Below are positions 7,905-22,437 of a stretch of DNA of 27,096 nucleotides, piece after piece. Made by a program: the position numbers and the translations under genes. The notes under the pieces are model-generated. The model saw nothing but the letters and a program-made list of their open reading frames with translations. It was not told the origin of the DNA and did not search any database. The first letter of the stretch is position 1. Each line of letters opens with the position of its first letter. The stretch is taken from positions 1-27,096 of the IMG/VR virus record IMGVR_UViG_3300048574_000507; one strand, 5' to 3'. Source of the DNA: a virus (taxonomy: Duplodnaviria > Caudoviricetes).

Positions 7905-8095
7905 GTGGCAAAATTATGGGAAGGCAAAATCATACTGAGAATTGCAAGACTGAGCCAAGTGCCTGCGTGCCCCTAGGACCGTTTTCGGGGTATCGACGTA
8001 GCCAAAATGAGCTTGCGGGGGTCTCCGGTCAATTTAATGGGGGTTTAATGGCCTTGTGGCGAGGGGTCTTACTGGGCAATGGGGGTGCCAATTGA
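7901..8095 (+). CDS. Possible small ORF or regulatory spacer between terminase and portal
   Basis: ATGA overlap with terL and TTGA overlap with the portal start. Contains repeated TTTAATGG (8033, 8044). Protein-likeness is weak. Confidence 0.3.
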   Translation: MSGKIMGRQNHTENCKTEPSACVPLGPFSGYRRSQNELAGVSGQFNGGLMALWRGVLLGNGGAN

Positions 8096-10470
8096 GCAAT
8101 GGGTGGAAATCTTTTGGGCAGAGGTTGATGGCCAGGGTGACTGGGAAGGCGCCGGGCGGGGCGGCCGGGTTTGCTTTTGCCTCTGGCTTGGACATGGTCT
8201 CGGCACCGGATCGGTTGACGGATCCATACCGGAAGTCGGCATGGGTGCGGAGCGCGATCGACAAGATTTCTGGGCCGATCTCGGCGGTGTGCGTGGATTT
8301 CTACGCGGCGGATGCAGGCTATATGGGCGTGGGCAAAGGGGCCAAGAAGTCCAGGTCCAGGGCTAAGGCACGCAAGTATCTTACGGAGCGGGGGCGCCGG
8401 GCGGTGGATGAGGATGAGGCGCTGGAGTTGCCGGTCATGCAACAGTTGCTGCGGTCGCCGATGAAGGGGCTCGGCTATACGGATTTTGTCGAGGCGACCA
8501 TTGGTTGGTTGCGGATGGCGGGGGAATCGTTCTGGCTGCTGCCGGATTCTACCTTGCTGCCGTATGCGTCTGGCGGTCCGATGCAGATCATCGTGGCCCG
8601 GCCGGATCGGATGCGGCATGTGGTCCAGAATGAGGAGCTGCTCGGGTGGGAGTTCACGGATGGCAAGGGTCGTCGGCATTTGCTCCTGCCTGACCAGGTG
8701 ATCCAGCTCAAACAGTGGAATCCCTACGACGCCTGGCGCGGTCTGGGTCAGTTCGAGGCGGCGGAGCTGGCGGCTGAAGCGGACTGGTTGGCGGGGCGGT
8801 TCGCCCGGAACCTCATGGCGAACAACGGGGACACTGGGCCGTACATCGTGGCCAAAAACGGAATCCCAAGCGATGGGCAGCGGGAGCAGATCCTGGCGGA
8901 TCTCCGGGCCAAGCGGGCAGCGCAGTTGCGTGGGCAGTTCAAGCCGATCTTCATGACGGGGGATATCACGGTCGAAGATCCACAGGTGCGCAGCGTGGAC
9001 GCGGCTTATGTGCTGGGCCGGATTGAGAATCGCCATGAGGTTTACATCGCGATGGGGGTGCCGCCATCGATGGCGGATGTGAAGGCGGCGTATTCGATTG
9101 GATCGGCCTCGGATTTTTACCAGCTCATCCTTAATACCTGCGTGCCCGCGGGCGGAAAGTTCTGCGATGGGCTGGAGCAGCTCGCGCTGAAGCTGACGAA
9201 GCAGAGCGTATGCGCGTTTTTGAATTGGGATGAACACCCCGTGTTCCAGGAGGTGCGCAAGGAACGGCTGGCATCTGTGGATACGCTGTGGTCAAAGGGC
9301 ATGCCGGTGTGTGAGATCTCAGAGTATCTCGGGCTGGGGTTGCCGCAGTTCCCCGGTGATGACGTGGGGTATCTGCCGTTTGGGGCGGTGCCGGTCGATG
9401 GGGCCATGCCTGGGAATGGGAATGATGGGACGAATGGGACGAATGATCCCGCGGTTGACCCGGCGCTGGGGGAAGAGGCGGACGTCGTTGTCGAGGCGCT
9501 GCGGGCTTTGCGAGGGCCGCTGTCGACAGGCGTTGACCGATTTCCCGCGAGGGGTCAGTGCTCGCTTTCTGTAGACGACACAGAAAGTCGAGAACTGACC
9601 CCATCGCTCGGTTGCTGCGGCTGCTCGATTGAGGAGCGGGATTTGGATGTGGATGGGCGGGACGCGAAGGAGTTGGCTCAGTGGCGGGAGTTGATCGCGA
9701 AGCGGTTGCCGACGATCAAGAAGTTCCGCAGTCATTTTGACCAGGTGCTGATGAAGGCGCGGCGCCAGGTGCTGGCGAAGTTGGAAGCCAAGAAATCAGG
9801 GACGGGGTGGAACCCATCCCTACCTGTTGATCGGGCTGCTGCTGCCGACTTCCTTTTTAACCTGGCGAATTTTGCGGCGGAGTTTCGGACGGCGATGCGC
9901 GGGGTGTCGCTGCAGGCGGTGATCGATTCGGGCAACCAACTATATAAGGAGGTTGGCCGGGATGATCCGTGGAAGGCGCCTTCGCTCGACACAATGCGGT
10001 TCATCGAGGAGCGGGAGAACAAACTCTCGAATGTGCCCAATGAAGTTTTCGGCCGGGTGCGCGATTCGATTGCCGAACAGATCGAGCTGGGCGGATCCAT
10101 GACGGACATTGAAAGGGCCGTTAAAGCGGAGTTCAACGCCATTTCAGATAAGCGCGGCAAGACGATTGCACAGACGGAAACCGGGGCGGCGATGGGGTTT
10201 GGCCGCCACAAGGCGATGGTCTCGGCCGGGATCCAATGGAAGCGATGGCTGGTGTCGGGTAACTCGAATGTGCGCGCGGCTCACAAAATGATGAACGGAA
10301 CCATCGTCCCCATCGACCAGAAGTTTTTGGTGATCGACCCCAAAACGGGGGCGAGTGACGAGGTGATGCATCCGGGGGATGCGAGCGGGGCGGCCTGGAA
10401 CGTGATCAACTGCCACTGCATTGAGGTGAGCAGCATGACGGGACCAGAGGGAACGGCGGAGGGAACCTAG
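8092..10470 (+). CDS. HK97-family portal protein fused to a Mu gpF/SPP1 gp7-like minor head domain
   Basis: Portal motifs GESFW, RPDRM, WNPYDAWRGL and MGVPPSM. C-terminal RGKTIAQTE, KRWLVSG..VRAAH and HPGD...VINCHC. TTG 8092 with G-rich SD (start uncertain). Confidence 0.9.
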   Translation: MSNGWKSFGQRLMARVTGKAPGGAAGFAFASGLDMVSAPDRLTDPYRKSAWVRSAIDKISGPISAVCVDFYAADAGYMGVGKGAKKSRSRAKARKYLTERGRRAVDEDEALELPVMQQLLRSPMKGLGYTDFVEATIGWLRMAGESFWLLPDSTLLPYASGGPMQIIVARPDRMRHVVQNEELLGWEFTDGKGRRHLLLPDQVIQLKQWNPYDAWRGLGQFEAAELAAEADWLAGRFARNLMANNGDTGPYIVAKNGIPSDGQREQILADLRAKRAAQLRGQFKPIFMTGDITVEDPQVRSVDAAYVLGRIENRHEVYIAMGVPPSMADVKAAYSIGSASDFYQLILNTCVPAGGKFCDGLEQLALKLTKQSVCAFLNWDEHPVFQEVRKERLASVDTLWSKGMPVCEISEYLGLGLPQFPGDDVGYLPFGAVPVDGAMPGNGNDGTNGTNDPAVDPALGEEADVVVEALRALRGPLSTGVDRFPARGQCSLSVDDTESRELTPSLGCCGCSIEERDLDVDGRDAKELAQWRELIAKRLPTIKKFRSHFDQVLMKARRQVLAKLEAKKSGTGWNPSLPVDRAAAADFLFNLANFAAEFRTAMRGVSLQAVIDSGNQLYKEVGRDDPWKAPSLDTMRFIEERENKLSNVPNEVFGRVRDSIAEQIELGGSMTDIERAVKAEFNAISDKRGKTIAQTETGAAMGFGRHKAMVSAGIQWKRWLVSGNSNVRAAHKMMNGTIVPIDQKFLVIDPKTGASDEVMHPGDASGAAWNVINCHCIEVSSMTGPEGTAEGT
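9412..9447 (+). repeat. In-frame 9-nt-period repeat encoding GNGNDGTNGTND
   Basis: gggaatgggaatgatgggacgaatgggacgaatgat. Confidence 0.6.
9542..9611 (+). repeat. 70-nt palindromic element, copy 1 (inside portal CDS)
   Basis: 57/70 identical to 16708-16777. Long imperfect hairpin GGGGTCAGTGCTC...GAGAACTGACCCC. Confidence 0.9.
9793..9825 (+). repeat. 33-nt GTAG-type REP-like palindrome, copy 1 (inside portal CDS)
   Basis: 32/33 identical to 12767-12799. Stem AGGGACGGG/CCC(A)TCCCT; reads GTAGGG on the minus strand. Confidence 0.9.
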
Positions 10471-10500: not shown

Positions 10501-11223
10501 ATGAAAATGGTGCGCAGAACAATTTATCCGGTGGCCAGGGTGGTGGATGCGAAGGCGGGCCTGGTCGAGTACGTGGCGAGTGACGAGACGGTGGATTCGT
10601 ATCGGGAGGTGATCCGCGTGAATGGCTGGCGGTTCGATATGTTCCGCCGCAATGCGCCGTTCGTGGATTCGCACAATTACGATTCGCTGGATTGCATGCT
10701 GGGGTCGGTGGTGGATTTCAAGGTCGATAAGGTGGGCGGCAAGCCCGCGCTGGTCGAGACGGTGAAGTGGGCCATCGACGTGCCGGAGAACAAGCTCGCG
10801 CAACTGGGTTTCAAGATGACGGAGGCCGGGTATCTCAAAGCCGTGAGCGTGGGGTTCTGGCCGGTGCGGGCGGTGAGCAAGTGGGACGCTGACCAGGCGG
10901 CGTACCAACAGCAGTTGCTGGAGCTGGGCCTCGGAGGTGAGCGTGCGCCGCGCGCGGTTTACCTGGAGCAACAGCAGGTGGAGTTGAGCGCATGCATCAT
11001 CGGGGCGAATCCCAATGCCCTGGCAAAAGCATACAAGGCGGGTCTCGCGAGTGAGGAGGATCTGAATTTCCTCGAAGCGGAGGCGCAAAAGAATTTGTCG
11101 TTGGAAAAGTCCGAGTTCGAAACTGCCGGTCCGGCTGCAGTCCCTGCAGATGCCGGCCTGGCTGAGCTGCAGGCGAAGTTGGGACTCCTGGCGACGGTAG
11201 TGCGGATAGCCAATAGCCAATAG
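10501..11223 (+). CDS. HK97-type prohead maturation protease
   Basis: ASDETVDSYREVI, PFVDSH, GYLKAVSVGF, ELSACIIGANPNAL. Confidence 0.9.
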   Translation: MKMVRRTIYPVARVVDAKAGLVEYVASDETVDSYREVIRVNGWRFDMFRRNAPFVDSHNYDSLDCMLGSVVDFKVDKVGGKPALVETVKWAIDVPENKLAQLGFKMTEAGYLKAVSVGFWPVRAVSKWDADQAAYQQQLLELGLGGERAPRAVYLEQQQVELSACIIGANPNALAKAYKAGLASEEDLNFLEAEAQKNLSLEKSEFETAGPAAVPADAGLAELQAKLGLLATVVRIANSQ

Positions 11224-11233: not shown

Positions 11234-11279
11234 AAGGATTGGCCGTGGATTGAACCCACGATTGGACGGAGTTTGATAT

Positions 11280-12761
11280 ATGAAAAATCGGAAAAAACTG
11301 AATCGACGGAATGGCCGCATCGCAACCATTGGTTGGGTGTTGCTGGCATTGGTGGCGGTGTGTGTGCTGCCGGTATTGATTGCGGCCGCATTGGCAGCGC
11401 CGAAGAGCGCGGCTTTGGTGGCGACGTTTGGCCTGCTGCCCACACACATCCTGCGGGACGCATCCAGTGAGGGCGGCGGCGGTGTCGCCGGCGTGATGGA
11501 GAAAACCGCGAAGGCATTGGAATCGCTCGACGGCCGGCTGAAAGGTCTCGATAGCAAAGTGGCCGAGCTGGAAAAGAAGGGCGGCGATCCGGCGCTGAAG
11601 ACGGACATCGAGGGTCTGAAGACCAACGTGAATGAAATCAAGTCGGGCTTGGACGCGATCAAGAAGAACCGGCTGGAGAGCCGCATGCGCCCGGCAGTAT
11701 TGCGGGTGGGCGGGGCTGAGTCTCGCGGGTATGTGAGTGAGGAATGTGCGCGGGAGATTGCAGCGCATTTCATTTGTCACTGCGCTGCGAGCGGCAAACT
11801 GGAGGCGCTGTCGGCTAATTCGTCCACGCGGGATTCGTTGCTGGGTGAGGCTCGCGCCTCCCTGGGCATCACGGGCAAGGCCGCGCTCACGACTACGGAG
11901 ATTCCGCTGCCAGTAGTATATGGCGGTGAGATCAAGGAGTTGATCAGCCAGTTCGGGGTGATCCGTCGCAAGATGTCGCCCTACCCGATTGGCATGGGGA
12001 CGGCCCGGCCGGCACGGATGGGAACGCGTCCGGCGTTTGGCAGCATCGCGATGTCTGGCGCATTTGATGAGAAGGCGCCGACGATCACGTTCGCATCGCT
12101 GGAGTCGCACAAGCTCGGTGGTTTGGTGCGGTTGCCACGGGAGATCGACGAGCAGAGCATCGTGCCGATGGGCCAGTTCCTGGCGCGGTATGGCGCGGTG
12201 GAGTTTGCACGGGCCGAGGATCTCTGGGGATTCCTGGCGGATGGCACGGCCACTTATGAGTCGGTGAAGGGTGTGGCCGCAATTGCTGCGGATAACAACA
12301 AGGTGTTGTCGCTGGCAGCCGGCAAGACCAAGCCGAGCGATGCGACGCTGGAAGATTTCCGCGCGTTGCGCCGCCTGGTGAACAAGGCCGCGCTGAGCGG
12401 CGGTCTCTCCGCGTATTACCTGGATACGACCTGGGAGACTTCCCTGGCCCGATTCAAGACGCAGCAAGAGCCGCTGGTCTATCAACGGTTGCCGGATGGC
12501 AGTGCAACTCTCGATGGTTATCCCATCGTGTGGACGGATGTGCTGGAGCCTTATGGCACGGCAGCGGCCGCCAGCAAGTATCTGGCGGTGTTCGGCGCGC
12601 TCTCGTTCTGGTGGATGGGCGAGCATGGCAGCCCTCGGATCGATACGAGCGAGCATGTGTTCTTCGCGAATGATCAGCTGGCCACGCGGTTCATCGAGGA
12701 GATCGACTTTGATTACGCGGCTGCGGATGCGGTTGCGGTGATGAAGACGCCGGCGGCATAA
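11280..12761 (+). CDS. Major capsid protein (HK97 fold) with hydrophobic N-terminal leader and coiled-coil delta-like domain
   Basis: Follows the protease. Motifs KLGGLVRLPREIDEQS, FARAED, TLDGYPIVWTDVL and HVFFANDQLATRFIEEID. GGAG SD 8 nt before ATG 11280. Confidence 0.9.
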   Translation: MKNRKKLNRRNGRIATIGWVLLALVAVCVLPVLIAAALAAPKSAALVATFGLLPTHILRDASSEGGGGVAGVMEKTAKALESLDGRLKGLDSKVAELEKKGGDPALKTDIEGLKTNVNEIKSGLDAIKKNRLESRMRPAVLRVGGAESRGYVSEECAREIAAHFICHCAASGKLEALSANSSTRDSLLGEARASLGITGKAALTTTEIPLPVVYGGEIKELISQFGVIRRKMSPYPIGMGTARPARMGTRPAFGSIAMSGAFDEKAPTITFASLESHKLGGLVRLPREIDEQSIVPMGQFLARYGAVEFARAEDLWGFLADGTATYESVKGVAAIAADNNKVLSLAAGKTKPSDATLEDFRALRRLVNKAALSGGLSAYYLDTTWETSLARFKTQQEPLVYQRLPDGSATLDGYPIVWTDVLEPYGTAAAASKYLAVFGALSFWWMGEHGSPRIDTSEHVFFANDQLATRFIEEIDFDYAAADAVAVMKTPAA

Positions 12762-12817: not shown

Positions 12818-13393
12818 ATGAAAAATCTAAACAAAATTGGATTGAGCCTGGCGTTGGGGTGCCTGGTGGTTTCGGCGGGGGCGCAGTCGCTGCCGGAGTA
12901 TGTGACGAAGTCGGCGTCCGGATCGACCACCTGTGAGGTGTTCTTCCCGGCGATTCCGGATCGCCAGGTGCGGATTGTCACCGCGATCGCGACGAGCGAT
13001 AAGGCGGCTTCGGTGCTGTCGTTTCGGTCTGGGGCTACGCCTTACTCGGTGAGCGCGGCCACGGCGGCTGGTACCAATGTGGTGATCGCATACACCAACG
13101 GGCTGGCACCTAGCGATGTGATTGCGGGCCAGCAATCCGGGACTAACTGGTCGGCAGTGATTCACTCGTTTCCGCAGAGCACGAATGTGGCTGTCACTAC
13201 CACGATCAATGCGACGACGGTGGGATCGGAGGTCTACAAGATGAGCGCGGCTACGACGATCAAGGTGGCCGCAACTACGGCGGTCTACTCCGGACAGGCG
13301 ATCTACGTGGGGGCGCGGGGGCGTCCGGTGCGCGTGGTCCTGGACGGGACGAGCGCGTGCAGTCTGGATGCAATTTCGGCGCTATACGAGTAG
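12818..13393 (+). CDS. Signal-peptide-bearing beta-rich protein in the head-decoration position
   Basis: MKNLNKIGLSLALGCLVVSAGA|QS. Ala/Thr/Ser/Val-rich. Immediately after the capsid gene, with GGAG SD. Confidence 0.8.
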   Translation: MKNLNKIGLSLALGCLVVSAGAQSLPEYVTKSASGSTTCEVFFPAIPDRQVRIVTAIATSDKAASVLSFRSGATPYSVSAATAAGTNVVIAYTNGLAPSDVIAGQQSGTNWSAVIHSFPQSTNVAVTTTINATTVGSEVYKMSAATTIKVAATTAVYSGQAIYVGARGRPVRVVLDGTSACSLDAISALYE

Positions 13394-14393: not shown

Positions 14394-14954
14394 ATGAGTG
14401 ATGCAATTAAAATCGAGCTGAGCCAGGAGGCGCAAAAGATCATTGCACGCCTCGGCAGCGCGGATCACTTGATGAAGGCCGTGGTCGTTGAGACCAATCT
14501 TCAGAATCAGTTGACGGTGGATGCGATTGCGGAAAGACGGCTGTCGGGCAAAGGGCCGTTTCCGGTGGGGTTGCATCGGTTGGGTGAGCGGACGCACCGG
14601 CTACGGCCGTCACTCCGGAGGGCGGATGCGACGATTAGCGGGAGTGCGGTGGAGAGCTCTATCGGCACCAACGTGGTTTACGCGGGCGTGCATGAGTTTG
14701 GTTTCGATGGTGAGGTGACGGTGAGGCCGCATGCGCGCAAGCGTTTTGAGCGGCAGTCTTTCAACGGACTGGGCAAGCGAGTGGTTCACCGCAAGGTGCG
14801 CAAGGCGGACACATCGGTGGGGGTGTTCAAGCGCAAGATGAATATTCCCGCGCGGGCTCCGATCACAACGGGGGTTGAGGAGCGCCTGCCGATCCTGGGT
14901 GCGGCGTTGAGCCGGGCCATCGTGGATGCGTGGGAGCAGACTTTGCCGCAATGA
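14394..14954 (+). CDS. Virion morphogenesis/tail completion protein (Mu gpG-like)
   Basis: T.RLR.S, IGTNVVYAGVHEFG and MNIPAR motifs. Confidence 0.85.
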   Translation: MSDAIKIELSQEAQKIIARLGSADHLMKAVVVETNLQNQLTVDAIAERRLSGKGPFPVGLHRLGERTHRLRPSLRRADATISGSAVESSIGTNVVYAGVHEFGFDGEVTVRPHARKRFERQSFNGLGKRVVHRKVRKADTSVGVFKRKMNIPARAPITTGVEERLPILGAALSRAIVDAWEQTLPQ

Positions 14955-14958
14955 TTTT

Positions 14959-15708
14959 ATGTTTGGCGTTTTAGATATCATCGAACGGTTGCCTTTTGAG
15001 CTGCAGGCGCGCCTTGAGGCGGATGCGTTCTTCGCGGACATCCCGGTGCTGGTGGCTGAGGACTGGAAGGTGAAGGCGGCGATTGCGCGCAAGCAGGCGC
15101 TGTTCACTGAGAAGGGTGGTAAGCGCGGGGCGGCGGTGATCATTCTCCCGATGATCGGGGAGGATATCTACCCCAACCTGGCGTTTGGTCCGCTCACACT
15201 GCAGCCCGCGTTCCAGGTGATCGAGCACGGCGAGTTGAATAATGATCCGAAGGGCACGCGCAAATCGGCTCGGCGCATTGCCCGGCGCATTGTGTGTGTG
15301 GTGAAGCCGTTGTCCCTTGGCGGACTGGTGACGGAGTTTGTCGCGGGCAAACCGCTGATTGATTCGGTGGATCTGGAGGCGGAGCTGGGCGCGCTGGTCT
15401 CCGCGCTGCAGGTGAATTTCCAGACCATCGAGGCGGACGCCGAGGAGCTGTGCCAGGTGGCGGCGCCGCAGTTTGCAACATTCCCCGCGGAAACGCCGAA
15501 GGTGCAGATCACGTGTGCGACTGAGGGCGCAAGCATTTGGTATTCGCTGAATGATGAATATCCGGCGCCTGGTCGCGATGGGGCGATTGCTTACACCGCA
15601 CCGATTGATGTGCCGGTGAGTGGGCTGACGATCCGGGCGTGCGCGTTCAAGGCGGGGATGATCGATAGCGCGGTGCCGAGGGGGACGATCTCGGTGGATG
15701 GGGTTTAA
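14959..15708 (+). CDS. Putative tail terminator with C-terminal Fn3-associated (CHB_HEX_C-like) domain
   Basis: Position before the tail tube. C-terminal VAAPQF...VQITCATEGASIWYSLND...YTAPIDV...TIRACAFKAGMIDS. Confidence 0.65.
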   Translation: MFGVLDIIERLPFELQARLEADAFFADIPVLVAEDWKVKAAIARKQALFTEKGGKRGAAVIILPMIGEDIYPNLAFGPLTLQPAFQVIEHGELNNDPKGTRKSARRIARRIVCVVKPLSLGGLVTEFVAGKPLIDSVDLEAELGALVSALQVNFQTIEADAEELCQVAAPQFATFPAETPKVQITCATEGASIWYSLNDEYPAPGRDGAIAYTAPIDVPVSGLTIRACAFKAGMIDSAVPRGTISVDGV

Positions 15709-17422: not shown

Positions 17423-18076
17423 ATGAAGATGGCATTGGGAATTATAGCTTTGATGGGAGTTATGGTGCTGGCTGCCTCGGGGGCGGAGGTGGTTTTCTCG
17501 ACCTTCCAGCTTAGTGGAGCGCCGAATAATCGACCGATCCAGATCGAGATGGATGGCGATGTGGTGCTCGCGAACACAAATCTTTTCTATAGCCGCACGA
17601 TGACGGTGCAGCCGGTGGCGGGCTTGGCGCGGACGAATTTGGTGTGCGCGAACTACATTGTGATCCTGGACGGGAAGCGGCTGAGGATGCCGGTACCGGC
17701 GGGGGATGGAGTTTATTCGGCGGCGGAGTTGATCACTTCGGGGGCGACGGTGATGAATGCGGCGCTGCCGGCGGCTTACCTACAGCAGGTGCAGGCAATG
17801 AGTAATGCGGTTCAGAGCCAGGTGTCCGCGCTGTTGGCGGCGGTGGCCGTAACGAACTCGACATCGACCACACTGCCCTGGAGCGGAGGAACAAGCGGGA
17901 CCGCATATCACATGGAGTTGGTTTTGGTGGACGGAGTGCCGCTAATCACACTTGAGCCTGGTGCGGGAACTGGAAGTTCGACGCTGCCTTGGTTGGGTCC
18001 GAGTGATGGGCACAATTATAAAGCGGTATTGGTGATGGTGGATGATGTGGCTGTTTTGGACTTAGAACAATTATGA
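17423..18076 (+). CDS. Signal-peptide protein with duplicated C-terminal motif
   Basis: MKMALGIIALMGVMVLAASGA|EV. Two S(T/S)TLPW.G...Y...LV.VD.V....LE units. Confidence 0.8.
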   Translation: MKMALGIIALMGVMVLAASGAEVVFSTFQLSGAPNNRPIQIEMDGDVVLANTNLFYSRTMTVQPVAGLARTNLVCANYIVILDGKRLRMPVPAGDGVYSAAELITSGATVMNAALPAAYLQQVQAMSNAVQSQVSALLAAVAVTNSTSTTLPWSGGTSGTAYHMELVLVDGVPLITLEPGAGTGSSTLPWLGPSDGHNYKAVLVMVDDVAVLDLEQL

Positions 18077-19725
18077 AACTTCAAACTCTATTAATAGGCG
18101 CCCTGCTCTTGGCGCTTAATGCGGGCGCGGCCTACTTGGGAGTAAATACGAACGGCACTATCACCGCACCTTTGAATTTTCCTGCGGCAAATGGGCTGGC
18201 GACCGTGCCCTATGTGGCCGCTCAGGTAGCGGAGCAGGCGGCGGCAACAGCGGCGGCGGTGAATACGGCCAGCAATGCGCTGGTGCAGCAGATCGTGGGT
18301 GGGTCTGCGACGAATGCGATCAATAATAATGGGGGATCGGGTTCGAACATTACGCTGAACGGCACCACGATGTTTTCGGGGTCGGGCGCGGGGCAGATCG
18401 GGTTTTATAACGCCAGTGGATCGACCCTTGTGGCAGGGTGGAACGGGAGTTTCTGGTATGGCATCGCTGCGGGGTTGACCGGGCTGAATGCGTCGTCGCT
18501 CGCGGTTGGGATTGTTCCGCCGGCGCGCCTCTCCGGCATCTCAACGAACGAGATGGACCCGGCGACGGATGCATTATATCGAGCGCAGGGTTCTGGTGGT
18601 GGGCTGGGTGGTGCAACGAACACGGCCAACACATGGTACCAACTGCAGACGTTTGCGGGTGGAATTGCGCTGCCGGGGCCGGTGGCTATTGGTGCGCTCT
18701 CGTTTGGGACGTTGTCGGGGACGAATCTCGTGGCAAACCTAGCGCAGAGCACGAATTTGCCGCGCACTGGAGTGCAGGGGCTGGAGAGTGCGCTGGCGCA
18801 GATGACCAACTCAATCACCGCTCTTGCTGGTGGGCCGACGAATGGGGTGAGCGCCGGGACTGCCACGAACATCGCTGACACGGTAGTGGCTCGGTCAGGG
18901 TTGGCGACGACGAACATGCTGAACGCGACGAACTCGGTGCTGGCCCAGAAGCAGCTCGACGGGACGAATCAACTGAATACCGCGCTGGTGGCGAAGATCA
19001 ATTTGGCTTCGAATGAGGTAGTGAAGAGCGAGGCGTGGTTGAGGCAAGCGGGAAGGCCGAATCTGTCGAATTGGGCGGGGGTCGCGACGAGTAGCAAATT
19101 GAGCGTGGGGCAGTCGATTCCGGTGCCAACGGGAGATTGGGTGGCGGTTTTCACAGATCCGTATGGCGCCGCAAACCTTCTCGAGTACTCGGACACGGAG
19201 GGGAGATGGGTGATTCCGGGGGCAATTGGGTTGCGGGTGCAGGATCAATTGATGGCGTATCAATTGTACGTGGAGTCGACCGCGACAATGTCTGGGAATT
19301 GTGAAGTGTGGGCGAATTTCGATGTGAATGGCGCCAGCCGGTTGACGGGTGTTTTGCTGCTGGATGATGGGCCGGCTGGGGCGACGGGGATGCAGGCTGT
19401 GGGGACGAACATTTTAACGCTGTTTGGCCCGATGAAATTTGAGGGCACAACCTACGCGGATTCGATATATTTTAGCACCGCAGAAATGCATCTATCGGGG
19501 GATCGCGTGATGAAGCTCCAGGACGCGGGCTGGGACGTGGATGGTTCGGTGACAGCGGCTGAGGGGTACTTTTTACCGTCCGCAACTCCTGCGAGCTGGC
19601 CGACTGCTCCCCGCACGATGGGCGAGGCTTACTTTGGGCAGTCGAACGGGGTGGTCTACGTGCTGACCAGCATTCCGGGCAGTGGGCAATGGGACAAAAC
19701 GAATCTGATCGCTTCACCTTACTGA
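18073..19725 (+). CDS. Signal-peptide, fibre-like protein (Gly/Ala/Thr/Asn-rich)
   Basis: MKLQTLLIGALLLALNAGA|AY. Fibre-type GLTGLNASSLAVGIVPPARL motif, helical stretches and a beta-rich C-terminus. Confidence 0.8.
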   Translation: MKLQTLLIGALLLALNAGAAYLGVNTNGTITAPLNFPAANGLATVPYVAAQVAEQAAATAAAVNTASNALVQQIVGGSATNAINNNGGSGSNITLNGTTMFSGSGAGQIGFYNASGSTLVAGWNGSFWYGIAAGLTGLNASSLAVGIVPPARLSGISTNEMDPATDALYRAQGSGGGLGGATNTANTWYQLQTFAGGIALPGPVAIGALSFGTLSGTNLVANLAQSTNLPRTGVQGLESALAQMTNSITALAGGPTNGVSAGTATNIADTVVARSGLATTNMLNATNSVLAQKQLDGTNQLNTALVAKINLASNEVVKSEAWLRQAGRPNLSNWAGVATSSKLSVGQSIPVPTGDWVAVFTDPYGAANLLEYSDTEGRWVIPGAIGLRVQDQLMAYQLYVESTATMSGNCEVWANFDVNGASRLTGVLLLDDGPAGATGMQAVGTNILTLFGPMKFEGTTYADSIYFSTAEMHLSGDRVMKLQDAGWDVDGSVTAAEGYFLPSATPASWPTAPRTMGEAYFGQSNGVVYVLTSIPGSGQWDKTNLIASPY

Positions 19726-19733
19726 TTTTTACC

Positions 19734-20867
19734 ATGAAAAAATTGATCTTCATTTTGATGGGTTTGGCGGCTGTAGCAAAGGGTTACGGCCAGGTCTATA
19801 TCACGGGCGGGGAGATGTCCGGCTTGAGCGGATCAGGCTCGGGCGGGGCGTCTGATTTTTCCGGGGTATGGACTTCGACCAACAACACGGAGTCCGCAGT
19901 GTGGACCAATTCCCTGGGGACAAATCGTGCGATTTGGATGCAGTCGTGGGTGGTTGGGTCGGGGCCGACAAATTGGTACAGCCGACAATCGGCGCATCTT
20001 TTTTGGCGAGGAACCGGGGTGACGCACCTGGCGGCGAGCAGTGCGATTGCGGTGAACCGGAGTGACGCGGGGATTACCACCAGGTGGGACACGAACACAC
20101 AGCCGGGGGATGCCGTGCTGTACGTCTCGGGGATGACAAATGAGAATATGGCATGGTCGTTTCGTGGTTTGATGACAACGACGACGAATGGGGTGGCGGC
20201 GGTGGCAAGCCCGTCAACTCCAACTCCAGTTGGGTGGTGGAAGTTGAACGATGCCAGCGGGATTACTGCGGTTGATTCAAGTGGAAATGGGCTGGCGGGG
20301 TATTTGTCAAACAGTCCGACGTGGGGGACGGGGCCAAATACCAACGGAGATATCGTGTTTTACAGCGGTAACACCAACCAGGCCATATTTTGCACTGCTA
20401 ATGCGCTTCTGAAGGCAACGAACTCCGGGACGATGATGTGCTGGATGAAAATGGCAAACAGTGTCGGATCATATCAGAATTTAATGTCGAACGGTTCAGC
20501 TGCTGGCAGCCAGGCGAATGGTGTTAATTTTCTAATACTCAATAGCAAATTGCTAGGCTCAATTAACAGTGGCACCACCCAACATGCAACCCTATCCGGC
20601 ACAAATACGATGGCAGTTGGGTCATGGTATCATGCAGCGTTTACCTGGGATGGGTCATTCTTGGAAATCTACCTGAACGGTGTGCCAAACAATACCAATC
20701 AGGCGCAGACATTCGCCCCCACTGCGGCGTACGGTCTCAAAATTGGAAGCGATGGGGCGGGTACGACCGGAACCTTTTTCCGGTCTGAAATTGACGATGC
20801 TCGGTTTTACACAAATGCGCTGAGTGCGTCTGACATTGCTGCAATATATGCAGCGGGAGCCAAATAG
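19734..20867 (+). CDS. Signal-peptide protein with C-terminal LamG/concanavalin-A-like domain
   Basis: MKKLIFILMGLAAVAKGYG|QV. LamG motifs VGWWKLNDASG...DSSGNG, WYHAAFTWDG...IYLNG and IDDARFYTNALS. Confidence 0.9.
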   Translation: MKKLIFILMGLAAVAKGYGQVYITGGEMSGLSGSGSGGASDFSGVWTSTNNTESAVWTNSLGTNRAIWMQSWVVGSGPTNWYSRQSAHLFWRGTGVTHLAASSAIAVNRSDAGITTRWDTNTQPGDAVLYVSGMTNENMAWSFRGLMTTTTNGVAAVASPSTPTPVGWWKLNDASGITAVDSSGNGLAGYLSNSPTWGTGPNTNGDIVFYSGNTNQAIFCTANALLKATNSGTMMCWMKMANSVGSYQNLMSNGSAAGSQANGVNFLILNSKLLGSINSGTTQHATLSGTNTMAVGSWYHAAFTWDGSFLEIYLNGVPNNTNQAQTFAPTAAYGLKIGSDGAGTTGTFFRSEIDDARFYTNALSASDIAAIYAAGAK

Positions 20868-20868
20868 C

Positions 20869-22437
20869 ATGAAGCTGATTTTAGCAATTGTGGCGATGGT
20901 CGCACTTCTCGTTCCGGTTCGGGCGGGAATCACAAATACCATCTCGTGTGATTATTTGGCTATATCCAACGCCATCGCCGTGGTCGGAGATGGTGACACG
21001 ATTCACATACAACCTGGCGCGTGCATGATGAGTAATAGTATTGTGCATGATCGTGCCGTGTCGTTCACTTTGCGTGGATCCGGAACTAATCTCACGACAC
21101 TGATTTCAACAAATTTAGCTCAGGTCATAGGATTTCGGAAGAACAGCAGCAACCTGTTGACCGTCTCCGACTTGAACTGCGTAGGTCACATCAATAATTC
21201 TTACGGATTTTTTGCGGTTGGAGCAAACGCACCATCCGTGAAAATGAATGGTCCAACAAGGTTCACGAGGATACAGATGACCAACTGCATCTATCGCGGT
21301 TTTGATGTTGGTGCCAGCGATTCCTGGGGGGTAATCGACCACTGCTATTTTGTCACGAAGGCCGGGGCCGCGTGTGAGCCATTCACTTTTCGCGGGAACG
21401 ATATTGTCTCTTGGACAAATAGCAACCCGATGGGGACCACGAACATGTGGTATGCAGAGGACAATTATTGCTACAATGGAAACAACGCAGGAAACGGGTT
21501 CTTTGATGCGTATGCCGGAGCGGCTTTTTGCATGAGGTACAATTTTCTGGACGGCAATGCTCCTTCAGGCGTTCACGGTTACGATTCGCAGTATACATCG
21601 ACGCGGTGGTGGGAAATCTACAACAATATTTTTACCAACATAACTCCGATAGTTTTGGCGATTGAAATTCGCGGCGGAACTGGAAATATCTACTCCAACA
21701 AGGTGTACGGAGCTGGCGACTTTCTTCAGCTTGCTTACTACCGATCATGCCTCTATGCCCATTCAATCGTGACTGGAATAGGAGTGCCGGGGGTTACAAA
21801 TACCATCGACTTTGGAGGAATCCAACCAACCAACGGGCAAACCATTGCGCTAGGCTTTAATGATGAGCTTTATACGTTCGAGACTACCCTTACCACGGTG
21901 AACAAGCGCGTTGCACGTGGGGCATCGTTGGCCGAATCTCTCACGAACCTGGGCGCAGCCTTGCAGCTTTCTGGTGGTGCCGGGACGAAATATGCGACCG
22001 GGATGACGCGGAATAGGCAATGGGTGCAATCGTCCGTTAGTGCTACGGAATTGAAGATTTTCAACTGCCTGGATGGCAACATCGACGGCACTGGGTATCC
22101 GGCAAATCAGCAGCCGGGCGTGATTCAGGCGTGGCCTTACGGAACAAATGCGCAGACGTTGCTACCGATTTACGTTTGGGGAAATATGCAAGATGGAACA
22201 AACGCAACGACAAACCTGAAAGACGACTCTGCGGTCTGTAATCACAACATCACTAATTTGGTGAAGCTTGGAAGGGATTATTTCAATTCGGCCAGGCCGG
22301 GATACACGCCGCTGGCATACCCTCACCCGTTGGTTTCGGGAGCCGAGATGCCACCATACGTTCCGCCGTCGGGCGCAGTCCTGAATGGGAGGGTGTCGGG
22401 GAGCACGACTGTCACGGGAAGGGTGGGGGTTAATTAA
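20869..22437 (+). CDS. Signal-peptide right-handed beta-helix (pectin-lyase-like) protein, possible depolymerase or adhesin
   Basis: MKLILAIVAMVALLVPVRA|GI. AI...GDTIHIQPG start, Asn/Cys ladders (IDHCYF, AEDNYC, MRYNF, IYNNIF, IYSN), C-terminal RDYFN...PGYTPLAYPHPL. Confidence 0.8.
   Translation: MKLILAIVAMVALLVPVRAGITNTISCDYLAISNAIAVVGDGDTIHIQPGACMMSNSIVHDRAVSFTLRGSGTNLTTLISTNLAQVIGFRKNSSNLLTVSDLNCVGHINNSYGFFAVGANAPSVKMNGPTRFTRIQMTNCIYRGFDVGASDSWGVIDHCYFVTKAGAACEPFTFRGNDIVSWTNSNPMGTTNMWYAEDNYCYNGNNAGNGFFDAYAGAAFCMRYNFLDGNAPSGVHGYDSQYTSTRWWEIYNNIFTNITPIVLAIEIRGGTGNIYSNKVYGAGDFLQLAYYRSCLYAHSIVTGIGVPGVTNTIDFGGIQPTNGQTIALGFNDELYTFETTLTTVNKRVARGASLAESLTNLGAALQLSGGAGTKYATGMTRNRQWVQSSVSATELKIFNCLDGNIDGTGYPANQQPGVIQAWPYGTNAQTLLPIYVWGNMQDGTNATTNLKDDSAVCNHNITNLVKLGRDYFNSARPGYTPLAYPHPLVSGAEMPPYVPPSGAVLNGRVSGSTTVTGRVGVN

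Follow-up and report, generated by a model that had tools for sequence, protein, structure and literature searches.

The heads of some tailed phages begin to assemble at the host membrane. In SPP1, open procapsid precursors lie at the inner membrane in a portal-dependent manner; the cited sections of a 2026 tomography paper call the molecular basis unknown and state the same of how the heads of tailed phages become attached to the membrane as they assemble (PMC13212656). T4 proheads, in the parts of the accounts cited here, begin on a membrane-bound portal and are released after proteolysis (PMC9958956, PMC3185693). For HK97, the sections drawn on place the scaffold domains on the inner shell face, with N-terminal coiled coils that touch the portal (PMC10275583); the word "membrane" appears nowhere in that text. 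Here we describe a 27,096-nucleotide stretch of DNA (IMG/VR record IMGVR_UViG_3300048574_000507, positions 1 to 27,096; the window hereafter) that is a portion of the genome of an uncultured tailed Verrucomicrobia phage, and in which the HK97-type capsid precursor starts with a 72-residue leader, basic at first and then hydrophobic in two segments, ahead of its delta (scaffold) domain. An initial annotation of this DNA had described the leader as a signal or transmembrane sequence and proposed that procapsids assemble tethered to the inner membrane until a protease releases them. Its observations are confirmed in part, and its interpretation is partly supported.

A hydrophobic leader on an HK97-type capsid precursor

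The open reading frame (ORF) at 11280-12761 encodes an HK97 capsid precursor that is an ordinary member of its family except for the leader. It scores over the curated cut-offs of PF05065 (71.7 against 24.2 bits; E 8.8e-20) and TIGR01554 (83.2 against 27.5 bits) and matches phrog_10, and it has the helical delta domain ahead of the body and the adjoining His/Ser prohead protease that characterize the HK97 type. A search of the PDB with the capsid sequence gave no match. With the AlphaFold2 (AF2) model, which was built from 38 sequences and has a low mean predicted local distance difference test score (pLDDT) of 59, the top Foldseek rows were phage capsids, but with E values of at least 0.04. 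The model places helices at residues 2-39, 41-51 and 53-58, followed by a disordered linker and long helices from 69 to 195. Residues 200-201 form a junction of K/R followed by small-Ala-Leu, which is shared by at least 104 of the best 120 of 691 homologue matches, and based on this conservation and on HK97 the maturation cut is predicted between K200 and A201.

The beginning of the leader is as first described: 13 residues with seven K/R are followed by 27 uncharged residues (14-40), and residues 1-40 are helical in the AF2 model with pLDDT values of 77-90. The glycine run does not follow directly on this stretch, as had been stated, since residues 41-64 (24 residues) intervene and contain a second hydrophobic segment (43-58), and K42 is the sole charge across residues 14-58. 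Segment 1 is much better conserved in hydrophobicity than in sequence, which is about 40% identical among members of the window's clade. A distant leaderless capsid, P0173, has a short N-terminal tag that resembles the last part of segment 2 plus the linker as found in the window's clade, which hints that this part of the leader may be a separate small signal.

We compared the capsid leaders with 53 signal-like N termini from the same loci, chosen by a rough filter, and scored two hydrophobic segments where two non-overlapping 17-residue windows each had a mean Kyte-Doolittle (KD) hydropathy of at least 1.5. Two segments were found in 48 of 51 capsid leaders versus 3 of the 53 controls and none of the window's own five signal-peptide-like proteins, and the median low-charge span was 42 residues in leaders versus 27 in controls. 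The window's leader, with 45 residues that hold one charge and two hydrophobic segments, thus departs from the single short hydrophobic region of a Sec signal peptide. The Tat consensus is S/T-R-R-x-F-L-K with a moderately hydrophobic core; the leader has RR at residues 9-10 and lacks F-L-K, and of the 12 clade proteins, as gene-called, only 8 have RR within their first 25 residues, so the earlier judgement of a poor Tat match holds. The F|A motif cleaved by Prp in Staphylococcus phage 80alpha is present in none of the aligned leaders, whose hosts are Verrucomicrobiota. The leader thus appears to lie outside the Sec, Tat and Prp classes.

What the leader does have, on hydropathy alone, is two membrane-length hydrophobic segments behind a basic N terminus, and a basic residue comes right after segment 2 in all 12 proteins of the window's clade (read by eye). 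According to the positive-inside rule, a basic N terminus stays inside, one helix then exports the body of the protein, and two bring it back to the cytoplasm. The arrangement therefore fits a hairpin whose two ends are both cytoplasmic rather than a signal peptide or a single anchor. This also corrects the anchor originally envisaged, as a single helix behind an N terminus of charge +7 would leave the body of the capsid protein on the periplasmic side; a tether needs the second segment that had been omitted.

That a Sec or Tat signal sends the capsid protein to the periplasm is very improbable. The n-region and segment 1 are signal-like, and the next gene and four tail-region genes encode classical signal-peptide-like N termini. 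However, signal peptides seldom have a second segment, the Tat consensus is missing, and terminase, portal and protease carry no export signal while packaging needs the cytoplasm. The preference for a membrane anchor over full export is therefore borne out, as an anchor fits better than either export or Tat, although one argument given for it is weak: the capsid protein does contain a single TN pair, but a low TN count says little about anchoring.

Coding potential and start site of the leader

The leader is coding and under protein-level selection. It is present in all 11 of the best homologue matches and, by a hydropathy threshold, in 51 of the best 120 of the 691; among the 150 distant matches listed, it was found in 18 of 48 cluster representatives of at least 370 residues, where the threshold misses some. 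The ratio of nonsynonymous to synonymous differences was below one (pN<pS) in 19 of 19 locus pairs, which overlap and were aligned with protein guidance. When 11 disjoint pairs were aligned as DNA without regard to codons, mismatches in the leader fell on codon positions 1, 2 and 3 in 118, 90 and 172 cases, out of 491 sites each (p about 1e-6), and gaps were triplet-only or absent in 9 of the 11 pairs, with non-triplet gaps in two divergent pairs. Among the differences listed between close-strain contigs from one wastewater study, eight leader codons (within codons 44-56) vary, seven synonymously and one as H56R. A homologue search with residues 1-100 returned only a near-identical protein, because the leader is too divergent for a word-based search.

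ATG 11280, one codon after an in-frame stop, is likely the actual start. The well-spaced GGAG reported before it was found again, and the duplex energies, computed with an anti-Shine-Dalgarno (anti-SD) motif, are -6.1 kcal/mol for ATG 11280, -3.0 for ATG 11496 (Met73) and -6.3 for GTG 11493. The claim that the internal start lacks a clear SD thus stands for ATG 11496 itself and fails for the neighbouring GTG, which has a one-mismatch SD-like element supplied by glycine codons. This GTG lies within a GC hairpin of -20 kcal/mol; the two internal starts are in structures of -17 to -20 kcal/mol versus -3.3 at ATG 11280, and the start regions of three other genes of this phage fold at -0.5 to -3.3 kcal/mol. 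Position 73 is Met in six and Leu in four of ten aligned clade members and so reads as a hydrophobic helix position, not a conserved start. SD, open structure and coding signal over the leader all uphold the original preference for the long start, and GTG 11493 is a possible weak internal start.

It would take a dual start for a minority long form to anchor assembly while most subunits are made leaderless from 11493 or 11496. The window and loci L059 and L060 have a start codon with an SD-like element after the glycine linker, and leaderless relatives start exactly at the delta domain. We nevertheless consider this unlikely in view of the hairpins over the internal starts, the Met/Leu mixture at position 73 and the presence of an ATG, even in a wide region around the junction, in only 12 of 35 leader loci. 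The most sceptical explanation, that translation starts at 11496 and the leader is a chance open frame, draws on the many relatives that start at the equivalent position. It is already largely refuted by the codon-position bias, the low pN, the strain-level excess of synonymous changes, and the SD and open structure at 11280, and is extremely improbable.

Possible function of the leader

Our tentative explanation, with a probability a little short of even, is that the leader forms a two-segment hairpin in the host inner membrane that holds unassembled subunits or open shells and is cut off or extracted by the time the shell closes. Both ends of the hairpin would be cytoplasmic and the tether transient, and its benefit would be to concentrate subunits where the portal nucleates assembly, as in SPP1 and T4. 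Because the delta domain faces the lumen, the leader would have to be cut or pulled out before closure; candidates for an early cut are the phage protease, a host signal peptidase or an intramembrane protease. Neither a rhomboid nor an S26 signal peptidase was found among the 27 ORFs of the window or, in a search of five tailed relatives for each enzyme, among those relatives, the latter a weak negative as those records are 25-47% complete. The phage protease would finally remove the leader along with the delta domain by cutting at K200|A201, and the recurrent K/R junction and the intact protease motifs suggest that the leader would be absent from mature heads in any model.

Several observations weigh against such a membrane hairpin. 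The topology uses hydropathy as a proxy, and over the 20 residues that follow segment 2 the family has a negative net charge (median -2), as seen in the large tail-less clade, which means that a cytoplasmic location of the C-terminal side is not favoured. In the cited sections on 80alpha, the phage stays viable when its capsid leader is deleted or can no longer be cleaved (PMC5744158), and because the membrane anchor of SPP1 and T4 is the portal, an anchor on the capsid protein looks redundant. The distribution of the leader points in the same direction. We surveyed 166 loci of relatives in addition to the window, including 80 of 195 metagenome matches; exclusion of 7 loci without a capsid-body start and 28 with cut ends or a stop inside the delta domain left 132, which were reduced to 95 by merging at 97% identity. 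In this DNA-checked set the leader is present in 35 loci and absent from 60. A quick tree requires 19 changes of leader state (at least 7 forced by strong branches; shuffled mean 28.4), and at loci that lack tail genes an intact protease accompanies 42 of the 44 scorable capsids without a leader and 21 of the 22 scorable ones with it. The leader, absent from most relatives, mostly beside intact proteases, is therefore not a required step; among close relatives, an open hydrophobic frame is kept in all 11 of the best matches.

Gene calling does not account for the leaderless forms: 59 of the 60 have a Met at the start of the delta domain, 45 have an in-frame stop at most 35 codons upstream, and 8 have some upstream hydrophobic window in any frame. 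As leaders are also present on the deepest branches of the tree, which is unrooted, the pattern suggests repeated loss. The leader is an optional feature of the family. It occurs in 10 of 12 loci with neck or tail homologues versus 25 of 83 others (Fisher p 0.0006, uncorrected for kinship), the tailed relatives having been drawn from capsid-based searches since a tail-tube query matched no viral loci; locus L081 is clearly tailed and leaderless. Both forms occur within one host genome in two cases, and some natural pairs of leader-bearing and leaderless loci have capsid bodies about 95% or more alike. We rejected the idea that leader loss tracks decay of the elements, as proteases and terminases are mostly intact; the "broken" labels of three divergent tailed proteases are probably misses of the motif search. 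We also rejected a need for the leader in all HK97 capsids of the host phylum. The 301 genomes sampled from the phylum contained 15 PF05065 matches, and none of the 13 outside the centre genome bears a leader.

The leader may instead be an assembly tag that never meets lipid, with leaders clustering together or with portal or protease inside the prohead, extending the scaffold core, and being degraded with the delta domain. We regard this as possible, though doubtful. It poses no geometric problem, as the delta N termini are luminal with coiled-coil towers on the portal in the HK97 sections cited (PMC10275583), and the 80alpha scaffold N terminus is, in the part of that paper used here, essential for assembly while its cleavage is not needed (PMC5744158). 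The sequence motif of segment 2 is kept family-wide, and remnants of the end of segment 2 occur in leaderless forms. On the other side, a basic n-region followed by about 40 nearly uncharged residues would be expected to engage the signal recognition particle (SRP) and YidC during translation, and the stronger conservation of hydrophobicity than of sequence in segment 1 also speaks against a lipid-free tag.

The model originally proposed, taken literally, would keep the leaders in the bilayer as the shell grows and its lattice bends the inner membrane, with the shell attached until proteolysis or enclosing a lipid vesicle. Each subunit would indeed bear an anchor on its luminal face, and T4 proheads leave the membrane after proteolysis, as the cited part of one account has it (PMC9958956). 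However, with the leader on the lumen-pointing N terminus of the delta domain, a procapsid that has closed cannot be attached to the membrane through it; tethering of procapsids until release is geometrically impossible unless membrane is enclosed, an enclosed vesicle must clear before DNA packaging, and leaderless relatives have capsid bodies that are about 75-80% identical. We consider this model improbable. A variant in which the HK97-fold shell is built from integral-membrane precursors, with luminal-side hairpins bending the inner membrane like a coated pit and enclosing lipid transiently until the prohead protease cuts, would be a PRD1-like route in a tailed phage and is quite improbable. 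A transient hairpin that is gone before closure would avoid this difficulty of geometry.

Gene context and relatives

The features of the locus are collected in Table 1. The His and Ser motifs of the protease are conserved in relatives, and the window also holds an adaptor, a neck gene and tail-region genes. Based on comparison with SPP1 and T4, the portal-MuF fusion is a candidate membrane nucleation point.

Table 1. Features of the capsid locus, in positions of the window
Feature	Coordinates	Strand	Remarks
Terminase gene	starts 6447		
Portal fused to MuF-like domain	8056..10470	+	PF04860 + PF04233
HK97-type prohead protease	10501..11223	+	phrog_80, E 1.1e-4; His58 and Ser116 motifs intact
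Shine-Dalgarno GGAG	11268..11271	+	8 nt 5' of ATG 11280
Capsid precursor ORF	11280..12761	+	493 residues
Leader n-region, residues 1-13	11280..11318	+	7 K/R; predicted cytoplasmic; basic n-region in relatives too
Hydrophobic segment 1, residues 14-40	11319..11399	+	KD19 3.06; Pro31 kept across the window's clade
Pro-Lys break and hydrophobic segment 2, residues 41-58	11400..11453	+	aligns with family G-L-x-L-A-x-x-P-type motif
Basic/acidic Gly-rich linker, residues 59-72	11454..11495	+	low pLDDT at 55-68; ends in GTG 11493
Delta (scaffold) domain, residues 73-200	11496..11879	+	coiled-coil helices; AF2 helices 69-99, 104-135, 154-195
Mature HK97-fold capsid body	11880..12761	+	PF05065, phrog_10, TIGR01554

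The relatives found in genome assemblies are mostly labelled Verrucomicrobiota, several of them Limisphaerales or subdivision 3. In the phage collection there was no cultured relative; the capsid matched only Campylobacter phages, at 23%, and the protease matched none. The capsid of Campylobacter phage PC10 has no hydrophobic leader. A search of the Atlas gave only leads below threshold.

The gene directly 3' of the capsid gene (12818-13393, +), at the usual place of a decoration protein, encodes a classical signal-peptide-like N terminus that is kept in all seven aligned homologues, including those of the leaderless-capsid phages L081 and L085 and of the transposon-borne L047. The structure model of its product is all-beta and of high confidence (pLDDT 88), and comparison with the PDB gave no clear match (TM-score at most 0.35). 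At the position of the tail terminator, a gene (14926-15708, +) encodes a C-terminal Fn3-associated or chitobiase-C domain (PF13287, PF13290). Four genes with signal-peptide-like N termini lie between the tail-tube region and the likely tape-measure gene (17423-22437, +), three of them with 13-14 TN pairs each, and L059, L060, L061 and L083 have comparable large, TN-rich, signal-bearing genes at the equivalent place. Such genes may encode exported virion or host-surface proteins.

Among the relatives is a large family of head-only modules (terminase, portal, protease, capsid, adaptor) that adjoin host genes directly on chromosomes of Verrucomicrobiota. Most are intact, and a genome may hold several; L026, L032, L038, L039, L051 and L053 are examples among others from the 79-row clade of the tree, and an integrase was seen in L018. 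These modules resemble tail-less capsid-forming satellites, as presented in the cited part of a preprint (bioRxiv 2025.02.11.637232), or domesticated heads. Leader-bearing capsid genes in L047 (11207-16080) and L048 (6519-10501) adjoin genes for a Mu-like transposase and a transposition protein; L047 has no nearby protease gene and only one hydrophobic segment. In L072, L073 and L077 the usual portal is preceded by a second portal-like ORF that differs from it, and in L073 and L077 portal and protease lie several kilobases apart, with unrelated DNA between them.

Comparison with known systems

In a full-text literature search, whose reach did not extend to subscription papers and supplements, we found no membrane-type leader described on a tailed-phage capsid. 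The capsid leader of 80alpha is short and not membrane-spanning. Its likeness to the present leader is that both the capsid and the scaffold protein of 80alpha carry removable N-terminal extensions cleaved by Prp, with the one on the capsid dispensable; the difference is that the 80alpha cut, in the sections cited, is made at F|A by a soluble host protease, and there is no such site here (PMC5744158).

The M13 procoat has two hydrophobic segments that flank a periplasmic loop, and the leader described here may, by analogy, have a similar topology. The coat precursor of M13/f1 also bears a leader, is inserted by YidC and is cut by signal peptidase, as far as the cited passages go (PMC5766580, PMC3185693). 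In M13 the second segment becomes the mature filament coat, whereas here both segments precede a soluble shell protein of the HK97 type and would be lost.

The closest likeness in gene order and protein architecture is to HK97 gp5 and gp4: the order portal-protease-capsid, a helical N-terminal scaffold on an HK97-fold body and a basic-residue junction at the predicted cut are shared with what is given in the cited sections. The 72-residue basic leader with two hydrophobic segments before the delta domain is an addition, and nothing like it is described for HK97 in those sections (PMC10275583).

With SPP1 and T4 the proposed hairpin would share the site of assembly. In the material cited for these phages above, head assembly starts at the inner membrane face; SPP1 heads depart from it when they close and T4 heads after proteolysis. 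The anchor there is the portal, in T4 together with gp40 and YidC, whereas here each capsid subunit would bear an anchor of its own. If the capsid precursor does carry its own membrane hairpin, this would be a second and genetically separable route to the membrane besides the portal. The natural pairs of leader-bearing and leaderless capsids allow a direct test of the role of the leader, by swapping it in a heterologous head-assembly system.
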